A stretch of 64,000 nucleotides of DNA, taken from Lama guanicoe (Eukaryota). The DNA is taken from contig MU053876.1 in NCBI GenBank assembly GCA_013239625.1, positions 175,394 to 239,393 on the forward strand. Direction: 5' to 3'. The notes below the pieces were generated by a model that had not been told where the DNA came from, made no database searches, and worked only from the letters and a program-made list of their open reading frames with translations. Positions 418 to 54,523 of this stretch are shown piece by piece (position 1 is the first letter of the stretch; every line of letters begins with the position of its first letter). Position numbers and translations under genes: made by a program.

Positions 418-1065
418 AATTGAAATAAAAAGACTTGAAAGCTCATGCTGAAAATATACACTGCATATTTGGGAAAATCAACTGAGCAGGAGACATTGAG
501 CTATACAATAGTATACATACAAAAATCTAAAGAAAAAAAACAAATCTTTTAGATACCTAGGGAACAATTACAGAATACACTTTTTTTTTTCAAGATAGGC
601 CATGCTGAGCCATAAAATAAGATTCAATGAAATTGACTACAATACATTTAAATAAGAAATCAATAACCATAAGGTATTTTAAAACTCCAGATATTTAGTG
701 ATTTAAAAACACACTTCTAATAACTCATTCCAAAGAAGAAATCACAAGCTGAATAGTAATAAAATACAACATACGAAAATTTGTGGGACTTAGCTAAAGT
801 AGTACTTAAAAATTTATAGCTTTAATTGCCTGTATCAGGAGGAAAAAATATTTGAATCAGTTATCTAAGTTTCCAATGTAAGAAACCAGAAAAAGAAGAA
901 TTAAACCCAAAGAAATCAGGGAAAGAACAGTGAGATCAGAAAACAATAAATAAGAAACCACACAAACAATAGAGAAAAAGTTACCTTTGAGAAGTTTTGA
1001 AAATTAATAAACTTAGCAAGACTATCCCTCAACAGTTTACTATAAAACAACAACAAAAACCTTAC

Positions 1066-1412
1066 CTTGGCCAATTCTGTAATTTGACCAAAACCAGGCT
1101 TCCAAGTGGGAGCTGTGAATAGACGATCTTAAATCCACTCTCATGAAGCTGGGACTCTTCGGGAAAGTCTTCTTCAGAAACAGAGCACTTATTATACCTT
1201 GAGTCGGTGTTCATGAAGCAGTACCATGGTTCACTGTGGTCAACTCTGGCTGCATCCTCACTTGACAACAATCTCCATTTCAAACAACTTTCATTCTCAC
1301 ACTGAACCCACATTTTGTTTACATACTTCTTGTTTTCCACAGAGGACTCCATTGCAGTATTACACTCTTCTACTATTACCTTACTATCTAATTTTTCTTT
1401 TTCTTTTTCCAT
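1066..1412 (-). CDS. ZCWPW2: Zinc finger CW-type and PWWP domain protein 2, first coding exon (CW zinc finger and first residues of PWWP). Exon spans 1066-1425 with 13 nt of 5'UTR; gene continues leftwards out of the window
   Basis: Translation MEKEKEKLDSKVIVEECNTAMESSVENKKYVNKMWVQCENESCLKWRLL...EPWYCFMNTDSRYNKCSVSEE...SLVLVKLQNWP has the CW-domain signature (WVQC-x4-C-x-KWR...WYC...C) followed by the PWWP start, and I recognise it as ZCWPW2. Acceptor ...ttattttccag at 1427-1426, ATG at 1412-1410, donor AG/gtaag at 1065-1064 (phase 2). Confidence 0.96.
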
Positions 1413-1467
1413 AAATGCATTCAATCTGGAAAATAAATCAGAGGAAAATAAAAGAATAAACATTTGA

Positions 1468-1580
1468 AAAATATGAAAATGAATATATGTACGTATATGC
1501 ATGACTGGGACACTGTGCTGTATACCAGAAATTGACACATTGTAACTGACTATACTTCAGTTAAAACAAAGCAAAACAAA
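1468..1580 (+). mobile_element. 5'-truncated L1 3' end with about 18-bp TSD
   Basis: Same L1 terminus as 310-410 (gcatgactgggacactgtgctgtataccagaaattgacacattgtaactgactatacttca); flanks aaaagaataaNNatttga at 1450-1467 and 1581-1598. Confidence 0.85.
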
Positions 1581-1799: not shown

Positions 1800-3667
1800 A
1801 ATATCTTTTTTTTCCGATTCTACTGTTTTATTTTTATTATGTACTACATAATACACTGTATGCTACACAATACACTACATAACCTTCTAGCAAGAGTAGG
1901 ACAAGCATAACTGAGTTATTTTTCATCAGGAAAAGTGCCTTGTTAATCAATGTTCTCCAAACCCTTTGACACATAGTAATGATTAACTCCAGAGATACAT
2001 CTATCTCTTTCCATCAAACTCCTCTGATATGGATAACGGGCAATCCTTTTTTCCTTGCCCCGTTACTGAACCTGTGGACGTGTGCAGTGGCCATTCCCAG
2101 GATGGACAAGCACGCGGCCATGACGGCAAGCCCTGGGAGAATCTCGAACCGCATCGCGCTGGGAAACCAAGAACAAACACTTCTTTCCAGGCCCCTGAAA
2201 GGTGCCCCGGCTTCGGTCCCTTCCCGATAAGCTCCCCAATACCTTGACTACCCCCTCTCTATCCTATAAAGACTACACTCGTTGAACATGTTACGTTTCC
2301 ACCTATCCAGAAACAAAAGAACAAAATAGAAGCCTCAATCACTCTGGTCACAAATGCTCCAAAATTAAAAAGAAGAAAAGTCTGATATAGTAGAAGAATA
2401 GTAGAAGTTAACTGTAATACCTATTGTACTATTATTAGTACAAAGCTGGTAGATATCCAATGCTTCTGCCGTAATAAAAATGAAATCTCATTCAGTGCTA
2501 TGAGGCAGACATTATTCTAAGTGCCTTATGCACATGGCTTACATAGTCTTCACAACCTTAATATGACCACTTTTAGGGGGAAAAGGAAAGCTAAGAAAAG
2601 TAATTTGTTTAAGGTTCCAGGTCTAGTATATGGTAGAGTTGGGCTTTAAATGCAGACAGGTTTCCCTCCCCTGCAAATTCTGTGATCTTACCCAGGAGAC
2701 TGTACTGCCTGCTGGCTATATGATGTATATAAAATGTAGCAATTATTTAACCATATGAAAATTTGGAATTTATTGTTAAAAATTAAAGGAATCTTTTGTT
2801 TATATAGTTTGGGGTCTTTTATCCATTAATTCAAGGGATATGAGTAAAAACTTTCCAGAGCTTTTTTATTATGAAAATTTTAAACACATAAAAAAGTTAG
2901 AATTATACGATTAAGTCCCAAACTACTAGCTTCAAGAATAATAATGTGCATACTAAAAATAATTAATATAACTGAAATACAAGTAAAACTAATTATTAGC
3001 AGTCTTAATTTGCAATACAAAAACTATTTTTCAAAAAAGACTTAGAGATACCATATTAATAAATTAGTAGAACACTACTATTCAAGTAGAAGTGCCATTT
3101 GAAGCAGTTCTTAATTCTGAGTTAATTATATATTTAGAAACTCACTTATCACATACCTTCGCATGGTCACTACAAAGTGCTTTAGAAAAAAATTTGCCAA
3201 TGTATTCCAATAGGCATAGTTCACAATTTTTGACCTATTAATCCCACTCATGTGAATGTATCCAGAGAAAATAAACGTAAAAGAGACTAACCTATACATT
3301 GCAAAACCAACAATATTCACTGTGCACGATTTATTGTATTGAAAGAGTGGAAAAATTTAAAAACAGGAAGAACAAAATCTAAAGGAAGACAAATATAAAA
3401 TTTTGCTAATGATATATATATATTTAAAATTTGGTTAATTCTTTAATTGGTGAGGATATTCATGAGGAATAACTCTGCATTTTAGACTGCAGTTGAAGTG
3501 AAGTCTTTTTCTCTACTCTATGGGTCACTAGACAGTAGAGCAGAAATTTCTTGAGTCCAGACTTTGGAGCCAAATTACATGTGAATTCCTGGCTCTGCTA
3601 ATCACCAGCTGTACATCCTTGGGCAAGGCACTGTTTTTCACTTCACTTCACATTTGGTGTAACTTCA

Positions 3668-18724: not shown

Positions 18725-19277
18725 TGTAATAGAAAAGAACAAACCTGACTCCATGTTAGATCTGTTCCTTTGGCTTTAACCCTGTGCCCTGTCTTCTAGG
18801 CTGAGTCTTACTGGCTCTGTACCTCTTGTAACAGAATGTTGCCTAGAGCCTGAAATAGACAGGAGAGCCTGTTCTCAAGGCTCTGCCCTTTAAGGATATT
18901 AACACTTTGGGATATTAACACTTTTTCATTCATATAAAGACAACAAGTTGCAGAACAGAAAATAATGTTTGTTTTGTTGGAGGTTTTACAGGGGCACCAT
19001 GACCTGACCTACATGGACAGTTACAAGAACAAAGGATTCCAAGAACAAAGAATTCCTACACCAAGAAGTTTGAAACAACCAACCACATCCCTCCCCTTTT
19101 TTGTATAAAAGGAGCCTGAATACTGACTTGCAGAAGATGGTTCTCCAGGACATTAGTCTGCCATCTTCTTTGGCTGCAGGCTTTATGAATAAAGTCTGTA
19201 TTCCTTGCCCCAGCACCTTGTCTCCCGATTTATTCGCCTGTCATGTGGCGAGCAGAACGAGCTTGGATTCTGTAACA
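18725..19277 (+). mobile_element. Intact-length ERV1-type solo LTR (553 bp) nested in an old L1
   Basis: TG...CA termini (tgtaat.../...gtaaca), near-perfect 4-bp TSD taca/aaca, TATAAAA at about 19104, AATAAA at 19188. Confidence 0.85.
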
Positions 19278-40100: not shown

Positions 40101-41956
40101 ACAACATTTACAGTTACAGAAAATGTAATAATGGTTAAAAAATATTGTCCCAAACCTGCTGGTACAGATTTTTTCTGGATGACTGTAATTCACAACTCTC
40201 TCCTGGGATGAAATGAACATTCCTGAAAAAAATGCCTAAGCAACCTTCCAGTAAACTTCAATGGAATTAAGACTTGCTCTGGGAAACCATTCACTCACCT
40301 AAGCAGTTGACTATTAGTGAAGAATCTAATGACCCTCAATTCTTTTTTCTGTTATCTAAGTTTAATGATGATTATCTGACCATTTTTTTTTCCCCTACCA
40401 AACGTCCCTACCAAGGCTGTATCTTGACTTATGGGAGGTCTTTTTCTTTGCAGCAAAACCTGTAATAAAACTTCAATATATGCTTATAACTAAAGTGTGG
40501 CATTTTTAATAATTCATTAAAATTAACTAAAGCGGATGCACAAGTGAGATAGAAAGTGACCATTTCCAGCTTAATTTAAAGAATATCTGGATTATATTTG
40601 GTCATAACCTAGCAGGGGCACTACTTACAAAAGAATCAAGGTGTTTCACTTGACTAAATTGATACGTTTATGCATTCTGAACAAGCAAATAGTATTCTTA
40701 ATAAAACCCACTTTTTTCATAATCATAATAGGGAGGTATGCATTTTAATACAAAAATAAGACGCTTCAAATAAGCTAAAATACTGAGCTAAGTCATCTTC
40801 TCCTTACTCAAAGATAAACATGAATTTCCTTTCTTTTTCAACAAGTCTCAAATTATTCTGAATTGTGAATAAAGTTTCAACAGAAAACATTTCTATTAGA
40901 AATGTTAGAAAACAGATGACCATTTTATTTTTGATGGTTTTGGGTGCCTCAACCGATTTTGGTTAACATTCTTCAAAAACTCTACCAGCAAAAACATACC
41001 TTTTGGTAGTTTGCTTTTATTTTGTAAAGCGCATTAGTCAGGCAATCAAAAAAAGGGCTGATTCTTGTCCAAAATACTAAGAACACTGAACTGATGTCCC
41101 AGCCTGATAAACTGAAGTGAATGGATCTTTCTAAAAGATTAATACAGACTTTTAAATATTTTTAAAATGTCATGTTTAGGTTACGTTGTCACCTTGGTTC
41201 ATAATAGCTGCGACTTTTCACTTAAATCTGAAGCAAAAAGAGAGGCTTAACAACAATAAAAACATATTTTAAAGTAAACCCTGGAGCTGAATCCATCCTT
41301 TGATGAACTGACTGATGAATTAAAACGCGATTCAAAAACATCTTCCAACAGAACACCGACTCAAACGATACGTAAACCCTCAGTTGACAAAATACTACGT
41401 AAGGGAGGCGAGGGGCGTTGCTGTTGCTCATCGGCAGTTACCAAGGATAAAATTCGCTATGAGGACCGTTTTCTCTTTTATTCGTGTAACCAGAAACAGG
41501 CTACAGCTTGAGGGGCTTCATCTGGCTGCGATCCCCGAAGACGGCGAGGAATTCAACTACTCGCGACCCCACAGCCCAGGACCTGTCCCTTTTCCAGAAA
41601 TAACCGAGGAGGCGCGGCCGGGTACAACCCCTAATTCCGAAGCTCCGCCCTGGAGTCGACAGAGTCCACATTTTTTAAGGAGCAGAGCTCTGGATAACCA
41701 GGAGACCTGGAGCAGCGCCCCCAAAAGAGCGGCGGCGGTTAACGGCTCCCCCGCAGGCACGCATCGTCACAGGTTCCCGCGTTTGTGGCCACCGCGAGGC
41801 GAGCGCCGGAAACCCGCAAGAGCGCTACCAAGCGGAGCCAACTCGCGCCGCACCGCTCCACACCGCTCGGGAACCCCCAGCGGAGACTGAGAGGAAAGAG
41901 GACAGCGATGAAGGAGACCGTCGGCCCAACGGCCGCCACGGGGGCTAACGTCTTAC

Positions 41957-42450
41957 CCAAGTCGGCTCCGCCTCCACCTCCGCCTCCCGCGTCACTGAGG
42001 CCCCGCCGGCCCGCCGCGGAGGCTCACGGGACGCGTAGTACGAAACGGCCCCGGCCTCCTGCCGCGGAGGCTCACGGGACACGTAGTACGCAGCAGCCCC
42101 GGCCTCCTGCCGCGGAGGCTGACGGGAGGCGTAGTACGCCGCGTCCCCTTTCTCCCTCCACCCCCAGCACGGGCTTCGCGAACGCTCTCCCGGCTCCCTT
42201 GGGCCTGACTTCCGGTTTGCTGGCGCAGCGCAGGCGTCCAGCCGCGGACAACGGGAGTCCTTTTTCCAGCCGTGCGCCGATCGCCCTCCCGCCCAGCCCC
42301 CTCGCCGGCGCGCCCCCTGACGGGGCCGGTCCCCCCTGACCGGGCGGGCGCCGGCGGGCCGGGGTCCCGCGCGCCTGTTGCCGGGTGACGGGCCTTCTCC
42401 GGCGGCGGCTCGGCCCTCGGCCCGCGCCTCCTTCCAGAACCTCCGAGGCC
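41957..42450 (-). other. ZCWPW2: Probable non-coding exon 1 of ZCWPW2 (3' boundary 41957; 5' end approximate)
   Basis: Strong minus-strand donor TGG/GTAAGA at 41956-41951 inside the CpG island, facing the ZCWPW2 coding exon. The TSS cannot be determined from sequence. Confidence 0.6.
42013..42138. repeat. 48-bp GC-rich tandem repeat, about 2.6 copies
   Basis: gccgcggaggct(c/g)acggga..cgtagtacg recurs at 42013, 42061 and 42109. Confidence 0.95.
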
Positions 42451-42662
42451 CCAGTCGACCGCCGCCGAAGCGAGAGAAATGGGAGTCCCTCCGCGGCGCC
42501 CCCGGAGCGGCTGTCTTCGCTGGGGAAGCGGCAGTGTCTTCGAGGAAACCGGAAACCCATGGTGACCCCTTGGCGACCCGGTTTGTTTTCCGTCCGTTTC
42601 CACACATTGGAGAATCGAAACTCGGCGGCCCTGGGGGCGGCCTCACGGAGCCCGTCGTCGGG
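42440..42662 (+). other. AZI2: AZI2 non-coding exon 1 (3' boundary 42662; 5' end approximate)
   Basis: Consensus donor GGG/GTGAGT at 42663-42668 within the CpG island, upstream of the ATG-bearing exon at 54303. TSS is inferred only. Confidence 0.75.
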
Positions 42663-44736
42663 GTGAGTGACTGGCTTTGGCCGGGTGGGGCGCGGGCAGT
42701 GGCGGGACCACCCTCCGCTGCGGTGGCTGGTGCGGAGAGACGCGTCACTGGACCGGCGGCGTCCCGCCCCGGCATTCCTTACCCCGTCCCCTCGGGCTCG
42801 AGCCGCTCCAGGCCCCGCTCGGTCCTCACTTCCCCCGAGTGCTCTGCTTCCCTGGGCACCTTCAGGTCTGTTTCATTTAGTGTGACTGCGTTTCGGTCGG
42901 AGACGAAAGAGGAGCGCGTGGCTAGGACACTAGTGCCGGGGCAATGTACAGCAGCCCTCTGTGCGTAATCGAGGGCTGACAGTACGAATTCGTCCGTTTT
43001 CCAGTTTAACCTTGGGTTCAGTATGGTTTTCGATCATGCCGGGTAGGCTGAGACCCTCGTCCCTGCAAACTAGAAACTCAGACACCCGGAAATGAGAGGA
43101 AACACTCAAAAAGCTGTAATACAGATGAAAGCAAAAGTGCTCCAGGCTGTGCTGGAGATACACTGAGACGATCAGAGGCAGCGACTTACTAGTAGTGACA
43201 TTGACCCATGCCTCCTCAACATAGAAGACGCTTGCTTTTTTACTTCTGGAATTTTAAATTGAATTGAACAAGATCTCAAGGAGTAATTTAAATTCCAGTT
43301 CCCAAAACTTGTCACGTGTAATTTATCTACCTGTTGTGATCACTCCTGACATCGTCTGTAAGTTAGAAATGGTCGTCCCTCACAAGGTGGTTAAATTTTA
43401 ATTCGAGAACGGTTGTAAACAAACGTAAGGGTTTAATATTAAGGAAACATTGTAGCGAAACGGGAAATGCAGTGGATTAAGTCAACATTAACCCAGAATC
43501 AGAGGGCTGAATTTTCCACTTACTCACTTGGCTCTGAGGAAGAGATCAAATTTCTTCCTCATCTTTCTTTTCTCTAAAATGGGAATAATACTTCCTCTCC
43601 AAGGCACCAAAGCATAGTTTCCAAGAGTTTGGTTGGTCTAGAGCCAACTAGCCATTTTTTTCATTACTGGCTTCATCTGTGATAGATGGAAATTCTTGCC
43701 CACCTGGTAGGTCTTACGTAGATTTAATGAATTGTTATGAAAAACAAATGAGATAATTCCCTTAAAAGACAAAGCGCACTGCCTGCCACACCAACACAGC
43801 ACATTGTCATCGTTATTAAATAAACTATGATAAAGTACTTCATAATCAGTGTAACTTTTTTCTCTTTCTTTTGGCACATATATTCTGGTTTAAAGTACAG
43901 TTGTCTTCTCACTATCAGAGAAGAATTAATAATAGGACTAGTAACATTTAGTGTGTAAAGATGCCCAGTTGCATTGAGATGTATCACTTCTTGAAAGGAA
44001 TGAAAAGAGTGAGACTACTCTTCATACCTGTGCTAACCCAGAAAGAGTCCTGATTCCTTGGCTGTACAAACTGACTTCTGGAATAAGGCAGTTAGGTAAC
44101 TCAGTGAGGGTTATAAAAATGAAAAGGGGTTTTCCGTACTGTGTATCTGATGCTAAGTCCATTTGGGGGCATTCACTGAGTTATAGGCCATTCGAATGCT
44201 GAGGTGCACAGATACACTGTGTCTTGAAGAAAGGCTCTTGATCCCTTCCATGTAAACTGTATGTGTACTGTATCTTTTACTCAGTTTCTGGCAAATCTGT
44301 GAATTCCTTTCTGTTTAAGGTGCCATTGCATGTTCACATTAAAACTTTGCTTTCACAATATAGGAAGGTGGCATCTCACAGATGTATTTCAACTCTGGCA
44401 TCTTACTGGTGGGAAAATTTGGATTTGGAGTGGTAAACTAATCAATGGTCAAGGTGGCAGATCTTAACTAGAGTCTGGGTTTCTGAATCTCAGGCCAGTG
44501 TTCTTTCTGCCACTGAGTTCTGCCTTATCCAGATTCTTATTGAGAAAATGAGAATCCATTTTGTGTTGCCTCTCAGAATGTAGTATTAAGGGCACAAATT
44601 TGGAAGAAGGCATACCTGGGTTCACATCCCACCTTTGCTGCTGATTGTGTAGTGCTAGGCAAGGTATTGAATTTTTCTAGGGCTTTGTTTATCAATTAGG
44701 ATAATGGTACCTACCCAAGAAGTAGGAAAATGCATG

Positions 44737-51050: not shown

Positions 51051-51909
51051 TCCATTCTGTACATAGTAGTTTGTATCTGCCAATCCCAAACTCTCAAACT
51101 ATCATTCCCTCCCCCTTTCTCCCCTAGTAACCATAAGTTTTTTTTCTGTCTGAGTCTCTTTCTGAATAACCAGTATTTTTGAGCACCTTCCACAGTGATG
51201 AGTTGGGGACACAGTGGTGAGCAAAGCAGATGTAACCTCTCGTGTCACAGAGCTCACATTCTATCAACTTCAGCCTGGGCAGATTACTGCACTTTTCCAG
51301 TCCCTTCCTATAAAACGTGGATGATAATCTACCTCATAGAATTGTTAGGATGAATTTAAATGAGATAATGTTTAAAGAATATAGTACATGGTACTGGGAC
51401 ATAGTGGGCACTCATATGTTAATTCCTTTGTCTTCTGTTGTGAACATAATCAATTTCTAGTGTAGAAAGAACATAGTGGAGTATGCAAAAAAATTCTGTA
51501 ATATGTTGTAAAGAATTATACTCAGAAAATTTATAATTTGGTGAGCTGTAAAACTTGTTACTTACATCTAAGAGTGGAAACATTGAGGAAGAAATATATG
51601 GGTATAAAATATTGAAAATTTTTTACCCTCTTAGTGAAAATGGTGTTTTACAATTTTTTGTAAAGCTTACTAATAATAGCTTAGATGACGGTTTTAAATG
51701 CTTTATAGATATCCACTTATTTAATATTCTTAAGAATTCTATGAAGTAGCTGTTGTTTCTTATACATTATAAAAAGGAACCTGAAGCAGAGAGGTCAGGC
51801 AACTTGCCCAAAGTCACATAGACACTAGAGCTCGGATTCAAATCCTGGCAGCCTGGTCCTGGAGTCCATGTTCTTAACCACTATGCAATACTGCCTATAA
51901 AAAAGATTT

Positions 51910-53697
51910 CTCCAGAAAGTGGGCACAGAGGGAACATACCTCATCATAATAAAGGCCATAGATGACAAGCCCATGGCTAACAGCATACGCTGTGATGAAA
52001 ATCACAAGGCATTTCCTCTAATATCAAGACAAGGATGCCCATTCTTACCACTTTCATTCAACATAGTATTGGAAGTCCTAGCCACAGCAATCAGACAAGA
52101 AGGAGAAATAAAAAGAATCCAAATCAGAAAGGAAGAAGTAAAGCTGTCTTTGTCTGCAGATGGCATGATACGATACATAGACAATTCTAAAGATGACACC
52201 AAAAAAAAACTACTAAAACTCATCCATGAGTTAGGATACAAAATTAATATACAGAAATAAATCTCTTGCATTTCTATTCACTAACAACAAACTGTCAGAG
52301 AAGTTAAGGAAACACAATGTTATTTACAGTCGCAGCAAAAGGAATAAAATACCTAGGAATTAACCTACCTAAGGAGGTAAAGACCTGTGCTTGGAAAACT
52401 ATAAAACACTGATGAAATAGATTGAAGAAAACACAAACAGATGGAAAGATATACCATGTTCATGAATTGGAAGAATGAATACTGTTACAATGACCACACT
52501 ACGCAAGGCACTCTGTAAAGTCAGTGCAGTCCCTATCAAGATACCAAGGGCGTGCTTCATAGAACTACCACAGACAATTTTAAAAATTTGTATTGAAACC
52601 CAGAAGACCCCAAATAGCCAAAACAATCTTGAAAAAGAACAGAGTTGGAGGAATCATGCTCCCTGACTTCAGACTATACTACAAAGCTACAGTCATCAAA
52701 ACAGTATGGTACTGGAACAAAAACGACACGTAGATCAGTGTGGCAGAATACAGAGCCCAGAAATAAAGCCATACACTTATGGTCAGTTAACCTATGACAA
52801 AGGAGGCAAGAATATACAATGGAGAAAAGACAGTCTCTTAAATGGTGCTGGGAAAACTGGACAGTTCATGTGAAAGAATGAAATTAGAACATTCTCTAAC
52901 ATCACATACAAAAATAAACCCAAAATGGATTAAAGACCTAAATATAAGTCTTAAAACCATAAAACTTATGTAAGAAAACAGGTAGAACACTCTGACATAA
53001 ATCACAGTATTTTTTTGCATCTGTCTCCTAAGGCAAAGAAAACAAAAGCAAAAATAAACAAATAGGACCTAATTAAACTTAAAAGCATTTGCACAGCAAA
53101 GGAAACCATCCACAAAACAAAAAGACCTACTGAATGGGAGAAAAAAGTTGCAAATGATATGACCGATAAGAGGTTAACATTCAAAATATATGAACAACTC
53201 ATACAATTTAACATCAGAAAAAAACCTGATTAAAAAATGAGCAGAAGACCCAAATAAACATTTTTCCAAGGAAGACATACAGATGGCCAACAAACACATG
53301 AAAAGATGCTCAACATCATTAATCATCAGAGAAATGCAAATTCAGACTGCAGTGAGACATCACCCAACACCTGTCAGAATGGCTGTCATCAAAAAGGACA
53401 CAAATAACAAGTGCTGGTGAGGATGTGGAGAAAAGGGAACCCTTGTACACTCTTGATGGGGATGTACATTGGTGCAGCCAGTATGGAAAACAGTATGGAG
53501 GCTTCTCAAAAAACTAAAAATATATCTTAAAATAGGATAGCATATGACCTACCAGTTCCACTCCTGGACATACATCTGAAAAAAATGAAAACACTGATTT
53601 AAAAAGATATGGGCACCCCAGTGTTTATAGCACTATTTACAATAACCAAGACATAGAAGCAATCTAAATGTCCATCAATAGACAAAGAAGTTGTGGT

Positions 53698-54307: not shown

Positions 54308-54523
54308 ATGGATGCGCTGGTGGAAGATGATATCTGCATTCTGAATCATGAAAAAGCCCAGAGGAGAGATACTGTGACTCCGGTCTCAATATATTCCGGA
54401 GATGAATCTGTCGCTTCCCATTTTGCCCTGGTCACTGCATATGAAGACATCAAGAAACGACTTAAGGATTCAGAAAAAGAGAACTCTTTCTTAAAAAAAC
54501 GAATAAGAATTTTGGAAGAAAAG
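54308..54523 (+). CDS. AZI2: AZI2 (NAP1, TBK1/IKK-epsilon adaptor) coding exon 1 (exon 2, begins 54303)
   Basis: MDALVEDDICILNHEKAQRRDTVTPVSIYSGDESVASHFALVTAYEDIKKRLKDSEKENSFLKKRIRILEEK, recognised as the AZI2 N-terminus. Acceptor tttttaagtag ends at 54302; gtcATGG Kozak; donor AAG/gtaatt at 54524; 216 nt, phase 0. Confidence 0.97.

Follow-up and report, generated by a model that had tools for sequence, protein, structure and literature searches.

A 48-bp tandem repeat carrying three ZNF143-type sites in the shared ZCWPW2/AZI2 promoter of camelids, and its possible origin

Homotypic clusters of factor sites are usually ascribed either to dosage selection or to mutational bias at sites bound in the germline. 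A camelid promoter in which a site of the ZNF143 type stands three times in tandem, between ZCWPW2 and AZI2, raises the question of where such copies came from and whether their number matters to either gene. AZI2 (NAP1) serves TBK1 as an adaptor, both in autophagy and in interferon signalling. Meiotic recombination depends on ZCWPW2 in mouse and man, and expression of this gene is enriched in testis and fetal ovary (PMC12828234). AZI2 is also mentioned in papers on MERS-CoV infection of alpacas (PMC8195365, PMC8812806). The locus was analysed in a stretch of 64 kb, here called the window, whose features are collected in Table 1.

The promoter shared by ZCWPW2 and AZI2

A Pfam scan covered the 251 of 521 open frames of the window that are at least 60 aa long. 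Its strongest match among these 251 frames was the zf-CW domain in the frame at 1065-1556 (-), whose best named relatives are Camelus ZCWPW2 proteins (95-96%). They mark the DNA as that of a camelid, probably one other than the Bactrian camel. Together with the match of an exon on the opposite strand to AZI2 (PDB 5z7g), these results bore out the gene identities and the orientation given in a preliminary description, which had been made from the letters of this DNA: ZCWPW2 (-) and AZI2 (+) lie head to head, and the array is in the CpG island between them. A coding role of the array was rejected, as no long GC-rich frame over the island matches Pfam.

Table 1. Features of the window discussed in the text
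Feature	Position	Strand	Basis or remark
ZCWPW2 coding exon with zf-CW domain	1068..1436	-	Pfam PF07496, E 5e-16; tblastn
CpG island with shared promoter	41400..42999		GC 0.53-0.78, CpG observed/expected 0.85-1.10 in 200-bp bins
5' splice donor GTAAGA of a minus-strand exon	41951..41956	-	sequence
Probable ZCWPW2 non-coding exon 1	41957..42286	-	3' end at 41957, 5' end not fixed; contains the array
48-bp tandem array	42013..42139		three whole ZNF143 sites and two 21-bp spacers; direct-repeat family D1
SBS2/M4 site, unit 1 (closest to the ZCWPW2 donor)	42015..42039	-	M4 match
SBS2/M4 site, unit 2	42063..42087	-	M4 match
SBS2/M4 site, unit 3 (closest to AZI2)	42111..42135	-	M4 match; two differences from unit 1
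29-bp segment with the whole third site, apparently tandem-duplicated	42109..42137		one chromosome of run X6
CCGGAAGT, which we take to be an ETS-type motif	42208..42215	-	73 bp from unit 3
5' splice donor GTGAGT, probable AZI2 non-coding exon 1	42663..42668	+	sequence; a low-depth contig of run X15 begins at 42663
AZI2 first coding exon	54308..54523	+	PDB 5z7g chain C, 5-azacytidine-induced protein 2, E 6e-18

The two donors of the island point outward and are 706 bp apart (after 41957 on the minus strand and after 42662 on the plus strand). A bidirectional promoter is defined by genes that lie head to head with starts less than 1 kb apart; ZCWPW2 and AZI2 are divergent, with outward donors in one island, and may be such a pair. 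The human and mouse rows of the ChIP-seq tables used below were not flagged as bidirectional in 2013.

Run X15 contains a gap-free contig (41957-42286) with a depth of 843, compared with 30.7 in the flank, that ends exactly at the minus-strand donor. Since a contig of exon depth ends at this donor, the array probably lies inside exon 1 of ZCWPW2; X15 is only guessed to be RNA, and its contigs are unstranded, so that this one may merge two 5' ends. The preliminary description had thought it probable that the array lies within the ZCWPW2 5'UTR, and a position in ZCWPW2 exon 1 is made probable by the X15 contig, more than which unstranded contigs cannot prove. The flank contigs of X15 and X19 both end at 41986, overlapping by 30 nt with a branch at 41957, which is the pattern expected of a splice branch and a weak hint. 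No joint from the candidate exon 1 to the coding exons was seen in the runs compared, the RNA-type runs have no cover over 42528-42662, and no ATG lies on the minus strand in 41957-42500.

Several further observations were made along the two genes. Two ATGs (42479 and 42559, +) in the probable non-coding exon 1 of AZI2 are possible upstream starts. Seven codons at 19133-19153 (-) match the N-terminus of Camelus ZCWPW2 isoform X1, which suggests a further short coding exon, downstream of exon 1 and upstream of the zf-CW exon. A Pfam match to MWFE (the NDUFA1 subunit; E 3.3e-7, profile positions 2-33 of 55) at 2017-2247 (-), in a ZCWPW2 intron, looks like a fragment of a processed pseudogene. 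Intron 1 of AZI2 holds broken frames (about 51900-53420, +) with no Pfam match, which we presume to resemble LINE-1 ORF2.

The 48-bp array and its three sites

The preliminary description had reported three units at an exact 48-bp period, each with a perfect M4 motif on the minus strand, and this was confirmed. Tandem Repeats Finder returned the array with a period of 48, 2.6 copies, 91% matches and no indels, and its score of 212 was the highest among the 13 tandem arrays of the window (the runner-up, scoring 100, is a dinucleotide run). The units, at least 7 bp long, follow each other head to tail, with one predicted factor site in each. The 13-mer M4, ACTAYRNNNCCCR, has exactly three matches in the 64 kb, all on the minus strand (42027-42039, 42075-42087 and 42123-42135). 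Shuffled sequence contained 0.54 on average, and 2 of 100 shuffles reached three; the three matches are copies of one duplicated site and thus are not three independent draws. No additional M4 was found in 41400-43000 when one mismatch was allowed.

The array is genuine sequence and no assembly artefact, since a single contig of run X8, from another organism, runs through the whole stretch with the array gap-free, and runs X6 and X15 likewise carry all three units. The 13-mers differ from each other only at N positions, as the preliminary description had noted, namely 7 and 8; with two differences only, this is a weak sign of selection. Unit 3 differs once more outside the 13-mer, within the 3' half of its 25-bp site. 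Over a 27-bp site, units 1 and 2 show one difference and unit 3 two more, and the spacers of the window differ at 3 of 21 positions. Because the spacer fits the right flank, the left flank or a mix of them about equally (11-15 of 21 positions), the breakpoint of the 48-bp duplication is not fixed, and splitting the spacer into left-flank and right-flank parts was dropped as breakpoint evidence on account of this flat profile.

M4 is the SBS2 site of ZNF143/Staf, which is also bound by THAP11/Ronin (PMC3627581; PMC5006282; PMC3082894), and THAP11 and ZNF143 bind the same SBS2 sites in mutual exclusion (PMC3627581). In its 25-bp form, SBS2 joins an ACTACAN-type 5' part to the 18-bp SBS1 part. 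The core of every unit reads CGGGA, compared with the TGGGA core named for the 29-bp ZNF143 motif; CGGGA is permitted by the CCCR of M4 and is also present in the human site under a ZNF143 peak.

Elsewhere in the island, a second small duplication was found at 42303-42356, where a direct repeat of 19 bp (79%) doubles as an inverted repeat of 23 bp. Two tracts, at 42134-42172 and 42270-42322, are strongly rich in C, and in G on the minus strand (G4Hunter to -2.0); the former abuts unit 3 at the place of the apparent 29-bp duplication described below.

Copy number in camelids, human and mouse

Fourteen of 24 sequencing runs, from four organisms and six studies and with a possible source row excluded, hold at least 0.96 of the sampled words. 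Four runs were compared (X6, X8, X15 and X19), and X16-X18 and X20 (word share 0.24-0.28) as well as X21-X24 (0.00) were left unused. X19 has no cover over 41988-42671 and is no evidence on the array either way. In the three covering runs (X6, X8 and X15), three units were found, gap-free, among the contig pieces listed, and the array was seen in three camelid-like organisms besides the window. The 48-bp unit therefore looks stable, and not like a hypervariable VNTR, in a sample of three covering runs that is small and whose contigs drop rare variants. Variation in the number of 48-bp units, which the preliminary description had implied, was not found in any of the three, the sole length variant having a unit of 29 bp. 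A word share of 0.96, seen in 12 of the 14 best rows, was considered as a possible trace of a lost unit and rejected: X6 and X8 owe it to a deletion of 2 bp, compared with the window, at 41888 and thus outside the array, which X15 and X19 do not show. The same deletion is assumed for the other 10 rows, and word share is blind to gains and to heterozygous losses.

The organism sequenced in run X15, here called organism E, is about 3% diverged from the window (10 differences in 330 nt) and carries the array, indicating that the triplication predates the split between the two. Inside the array the differences are at 42045, 42081, 42095 and 42101; only 42081 lies within a site, at an N position, and the G found there in X15 makes the unit 2 site identical to that of unit 1. 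M4 is perfect in all three sites of both the window and organism E. Of 81 positions in the sites 1 differs between the two, and of 42 in the spacers 3, a contrast that is not significant (Fisher p 0.11). Units 1 and 2, spacers included, show 4 differences over 48 positions in the window and 2 over 48 in organism E. Unless the copies were homogenised, this near-identity places at least one of the duplications long after mouse and camelids had split.

Run X6 apparently contains a fourth site. The 29-bp segment with the whole third site is bracketed by a 6-nt microhomology (42109-42114 and 42138-42143). Record 12 of this run covers 42109-42143 (35 nt) at a depth of 18.2, and record 13 (54 nt, depth 6.1) was placed at 42114-42137 and again at 42109-42138; the depths of the flanks around the loop are 11 and 10.8. 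Modelled in 31-letter words, a duplication of 42109-42137 gives a shared node of 35 nt at 42109-42143 and a loop of 54 nt, and one extra copy on one chromosome predicts depths of 16.4 and 5.5. The loop fits exactly a heterozygous 29-bp duplication, which apparently adds a fourth whole site. This four-site allele, seen in one of the two DNA-type runs compared, is likely real; against a standard of 31, its junction is flanked by 30 letters on one side and 24 on the other, no joint is listed, and contig depth measures copy number poorly. The 29-bp duplication appears to be later than the 48-bp triplication.

For the orthologues, ZNF143 ChIP-seq peak tables S4 and S5 of PMC3627581 were used, with 400 bp of sequence each, and their rows were compared with the units by eye, so that no matrix score stands behind the identities given here. 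In human, 4 of 4 lines show a ZNF143 peak at the AZI2 promoter, which has a single SBS2. In mouse (table S5, row 3325), 3 of 3 lines show one at the Azi2 promoter; the three SBS2 there share one orientation, with periods of 38 and 40, and the row is marked as conserved in human, with Ronin/THAP11 peak 1 and HCF1 peak 0 (PMC3627581). The preliminary description had named the motif a ZNF143/THAP11-HCF1 element and had proposed ChIP at the orthologue and a count of units in other mammals as checks. Binding of ZNF143 at both orthologues, with a Ronin/THAP11 peak in mouse, supports the factor identity, which is better founded than the letters alone allowed. The HCF1 part was not supported, the mouse row having no HCF1 peak, although absence from one peak list is weak. 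As for the count, the number of sites does differ (one in human, three in mouse), and the mouse period is 38/40 and not 48.

By the same comparison by eye, the human FIMO-called SBS2 is identical to units 1, 2 and 3 at 23, 24 and 21 of 25 positions, and the middle mouse SBS2 to unit 1 at 24 of 25. The human flanks correspond to the outer flanks of the array, donor and ETS-type motif included, with no extra site between them, and the human AZI2 row lists no remnant SBS2 besides the one site. The position corresponding to this motif reads CCGGAAGT itself in human and CCGGAAG in mouse. Relative to the middle mouse site, the two outer ones show about 4 and about 7 changes in 25 positions, compared with one to three differences among the camelid sites; although the mouse spacers have diverged, all three mouse sites were called by the SBS2 scan of the authors. 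In human the annotated start of AZI2 is at the ACTAC edge of the site, and in mouse it falls about 34 nt past the third site. The donor matching 41951-41957 of the window is present in the human row and apparently missing from the mouse row, so that a different first exon may serve mouse Zcwpw2. When metagenome contigs were scanned for the 26-letter site, in search of host DNA from other mammals, 0 stretches were returned. The observed periods of 29, 38, 40 and 48 bp all leave 0.57-0.81 of a 10.5-bp helical turn, so that adjacent sites would never be on the same helical face; with four values, this is a weak regularity.

Compared with known systems, the units resemble the ZNF143 SBS2/M4 element in having a perfect M4 each, in their identity to the human AZI2 SBS2 (21-24 of 25) and in their CpG-island, head-to-head promoter setting; multi-site peaks are common for this element. 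They differ from usual SBS2 peaks in being near-identical tandem copies, spacer included, with a number and period that vary by lineage, and from the 29-bp ZNF143 motif in the CGGGA core; the mouse orthologue has no HCF1 peak. Judged by sequence and by the occupancy of the orthologues, each unit is a bona fide SBS2/M4 site, and occupancy in camelids is predicted. The mouse Azi2 cluster is similar in its three same-orientation SBS2 at the orthologous position, which are bound by ZNF143 in mouse, and differs in its periods of 38 and 40, its more diverged copies and its other spacers; it is known from the table row, 'AZI2' being absent from the other searched supplement files.

Two repeats or insertions of other kinds are also comparable. 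TSER, the TYMS enhancer region, is a 28-bp repeat (2R/3R) in the TYMS 5'UTR (PMC2528158), a VNTR with USF1 sites for which 13 alleles in 629 patients and trait associations have been reported (PMC7712088). Like TSER, the array is a short GC-rich promoter/5'UTR repeat with one factor site per unit, so that unit number is site number; unlike TSER, which is highly polymorphic, it showed no variation in 48-bp unit number in 3 of 3 covering runs, and for this reason it is not called a VNTR. The germline insertions of 5-20 bp described in PMC8559717 are human singletons, and NRF1, PRDM9, CTCF, SP/KLF and HINFP are named there. As in those insertions, a whole motif was copied in tandem in the promoter of a testis-expressed gene, and the X6 allele, whose loop holds the whole 25-bp site, resembles an event of that type still segregating. 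Unlike them, the units here measure 29-48 bp and recur at one orthologous site across mammals; as 29/48-bp units exceed the 5-20 bp range, the array works like this class and is not filed in it. The array is a promoter repeat of a known kind, and the repeat itself was not found described in the literature searched, which covers few subscription papers.

Origin and possible effect of the copies

The ZNF143 ChIP score rises with the number of SBS2 motifs, and among human ZNF143 peaks 42% have an SBS2 and 14% only a single SBS2 (PMC3627581). SBS elements suffice for bidirectional reporter activity, which drops about 14-fold when two are mutated, and at two gene pairs two SBS raised activity in one direction and lowered it in the other (PMC3082894). 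Acute degradation showed that ZNF143 upstream of a start activates initiation, and that over or just downstream of a start it can repress as a roadblock (28 up genes); on acute loss 365 genes went down and 182 up (547 genes), compared with 4682 peaks (10.1101/2024.05.13.594008). Not every ZNF143-bound gene goes down on loss, and in mouse ES cells the upregulated genes are mostly unbound, indicating an indirect effect (10.1101/2024.03.08.583864, PMC11687419). The searchable supplement text of PMC11754675 and PMC11687419 makes no mention of a response of AZI2 or ZCWPW2 to depletion.

With moderate confidence, we propose that one ancestral ZNF143 SBS2 (M4) site in the AZI2/ZCWPW2 promoter was multiplied by separate local tandem duplications, and that the extra copies raise occupancy and modestly favour AZI2 initiation. 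In camelids, three sites at a 48-bp period would have been made before the split between the window and organism E, and a later 29-bp duplication bounded by microhomology would have added a fourth on one chromosome; rodents would have gained three sites separately, at 38- and 40-bp periods. The length of the copied unit appears to differ between lineages (38/40, 48 and 29), and camelid units 1 and 2, spacers included, are too alike for a copy shared with mouse. ZNF143 would occupy the sites, with THAP11 as an alternative occupant, and more sites would lead to higher occupancy and thereby to modestly stronger initiation, mainly of AZI2. The AZI2 start would lie just beyond the array, which itself is probably part of ZCWPW2 exon 1. 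Against this reading, the units have CGGGA where the 29-bp motif is anchored on TGGGA, human manages with one site, most ZNF143-bound genes are insensitive to acute loss, and the constraint on the extra copies is not significant (Fisher p 0.11); moreover, since two SBS can lower one direction (PMC3082894), more sites need not mean stronger initiation. The effect on expression is one that we infer only.

The main rival, which we consider somewhat unlikely, is neutral accumulation: a GC-rich, factor-bound and germline-active site would duplicate recurrently, the germline duplications would drift to fixation, and the extra sites would be bound without effect, one site already saturating the promoter. 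Insertions at spermatogonial binding sites do often duplicate the motif and build clusters (PMC8559717), ZCWPW2 is expressed in testis (PMC12828234), and site 3 is both bracketed by a ready 6-nt microhomology and abutted by a strong minus-strand G-rich tract (G4Hunter to -2.0 at 42141-42146). The lack of significant constraint on the copies also suits neutrality, as does the finding that ZNF143 loss leaves most bound genes unchanged (10.1101/2024.05.13.594008). What it accommodates less easily is that M4 was kept perfect in all three sites of the window and of organism E, about 3% diverged, that the three mouse sites still pass the SBS2 scan although their spacers diverged, and that occupancy scales with SBS2 number (PMC3627581); in addition, ZNF143 is unnamed in the main text of PMC8559717, where insertions measure 5-20 bp. 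Concerning origin alone, and independently of function, the sites could descend from an ancestral multi-site array whose human copies were lost and whose camelid units were re-homogenised by unequal exchange. Mouse and camelids indeed both have three same-orientation sites at the same place, and conversion could have made units 1 and 2 more alike in organism E than in the window. However, the periods differ (38/40 versus 48/48, and 29 in X6), the human row lists no remnant SBS2, and the outer mouse sites stand farther from the middle one (about 4 and 7 of 25 differences by eye) than the camelid sites from each other (1-3). We regard this descent as unlikely, and it keeps such probability as it has because only three lineages were compared.

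The exon-depth contig that covers the array and ends at the minus-strand donor would also suit a directional action, in which ZNF143 on the array activates AZI2 and blocks ZCWPW2 elongation in somatic cells, extra copies tightening an early-elongation block that is lifted in spermatocytes. Precedents are the roadblock just downstream of a start, with its 28 up genes (10.1101/2024.05.13.594008), and the two gene pairs at which two SBS act up one way and down the other (PMC3082894), and ZCWPW2 is enriched in testis and fetal ovary (PMC12828234). This action is quite unlikely: the ZCWPW2 start is unmapped, and the unstranded contig may merge two 5' ends, with a gap that flank-level depth could bridge; human ZCWPW2 stays testis-biased with one site; the matching donor is apparently absent from the mouse row (by eye); and the genes upregulated in ES cells are mostly unbound (10.1101/2024.03.08.583864, PMC11687419). 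Very improbable is an action at the RNA level, with the repeat as a structured 5'UTR of the ZCWPW2 message. The repeat adds 96 GC-rich nt to the probable exon 1, and its plus-strand DNA has a slight folding advantage over shuffled sequence (z -2.0). The minus-strand RNA of 41957-42200 has no such advantage (z -0.57, with 54 of 200 shuffles folding equally well), which argues against such a role; no upstream ATG is introduced, and what human and mouse conserve is the DNA motif.

A bolder extension of recurrent duplication, to which we would give only a slender chance, is that the ZNF143 site is a recurrent self-duplicating, footprint-sized element, and that the 1/3/3/4 series was kept for an AZI2-on/ZCWPW2-off split outside the germline. 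The unit would then track the ZNF143 footprint, as the newest event copies 29 bp, the reported width of the ZNF143 motif. If this were true, site number would set how the promoter is split between the interferon-pathway adaptor AZI2 and the meiotic recombination reader ZCWPW2. If copy number is neutral, the array is an ordinary promoter minisatellite. The locus offers a natural series at one orthologous site, ChIP-validated in human and mouse: human has one copy, mouse and camelids have three each, and a four-copy allele is possibly segregating, so that a 3/4 heterozygote would permit an allele-specific comparison inside one animal.
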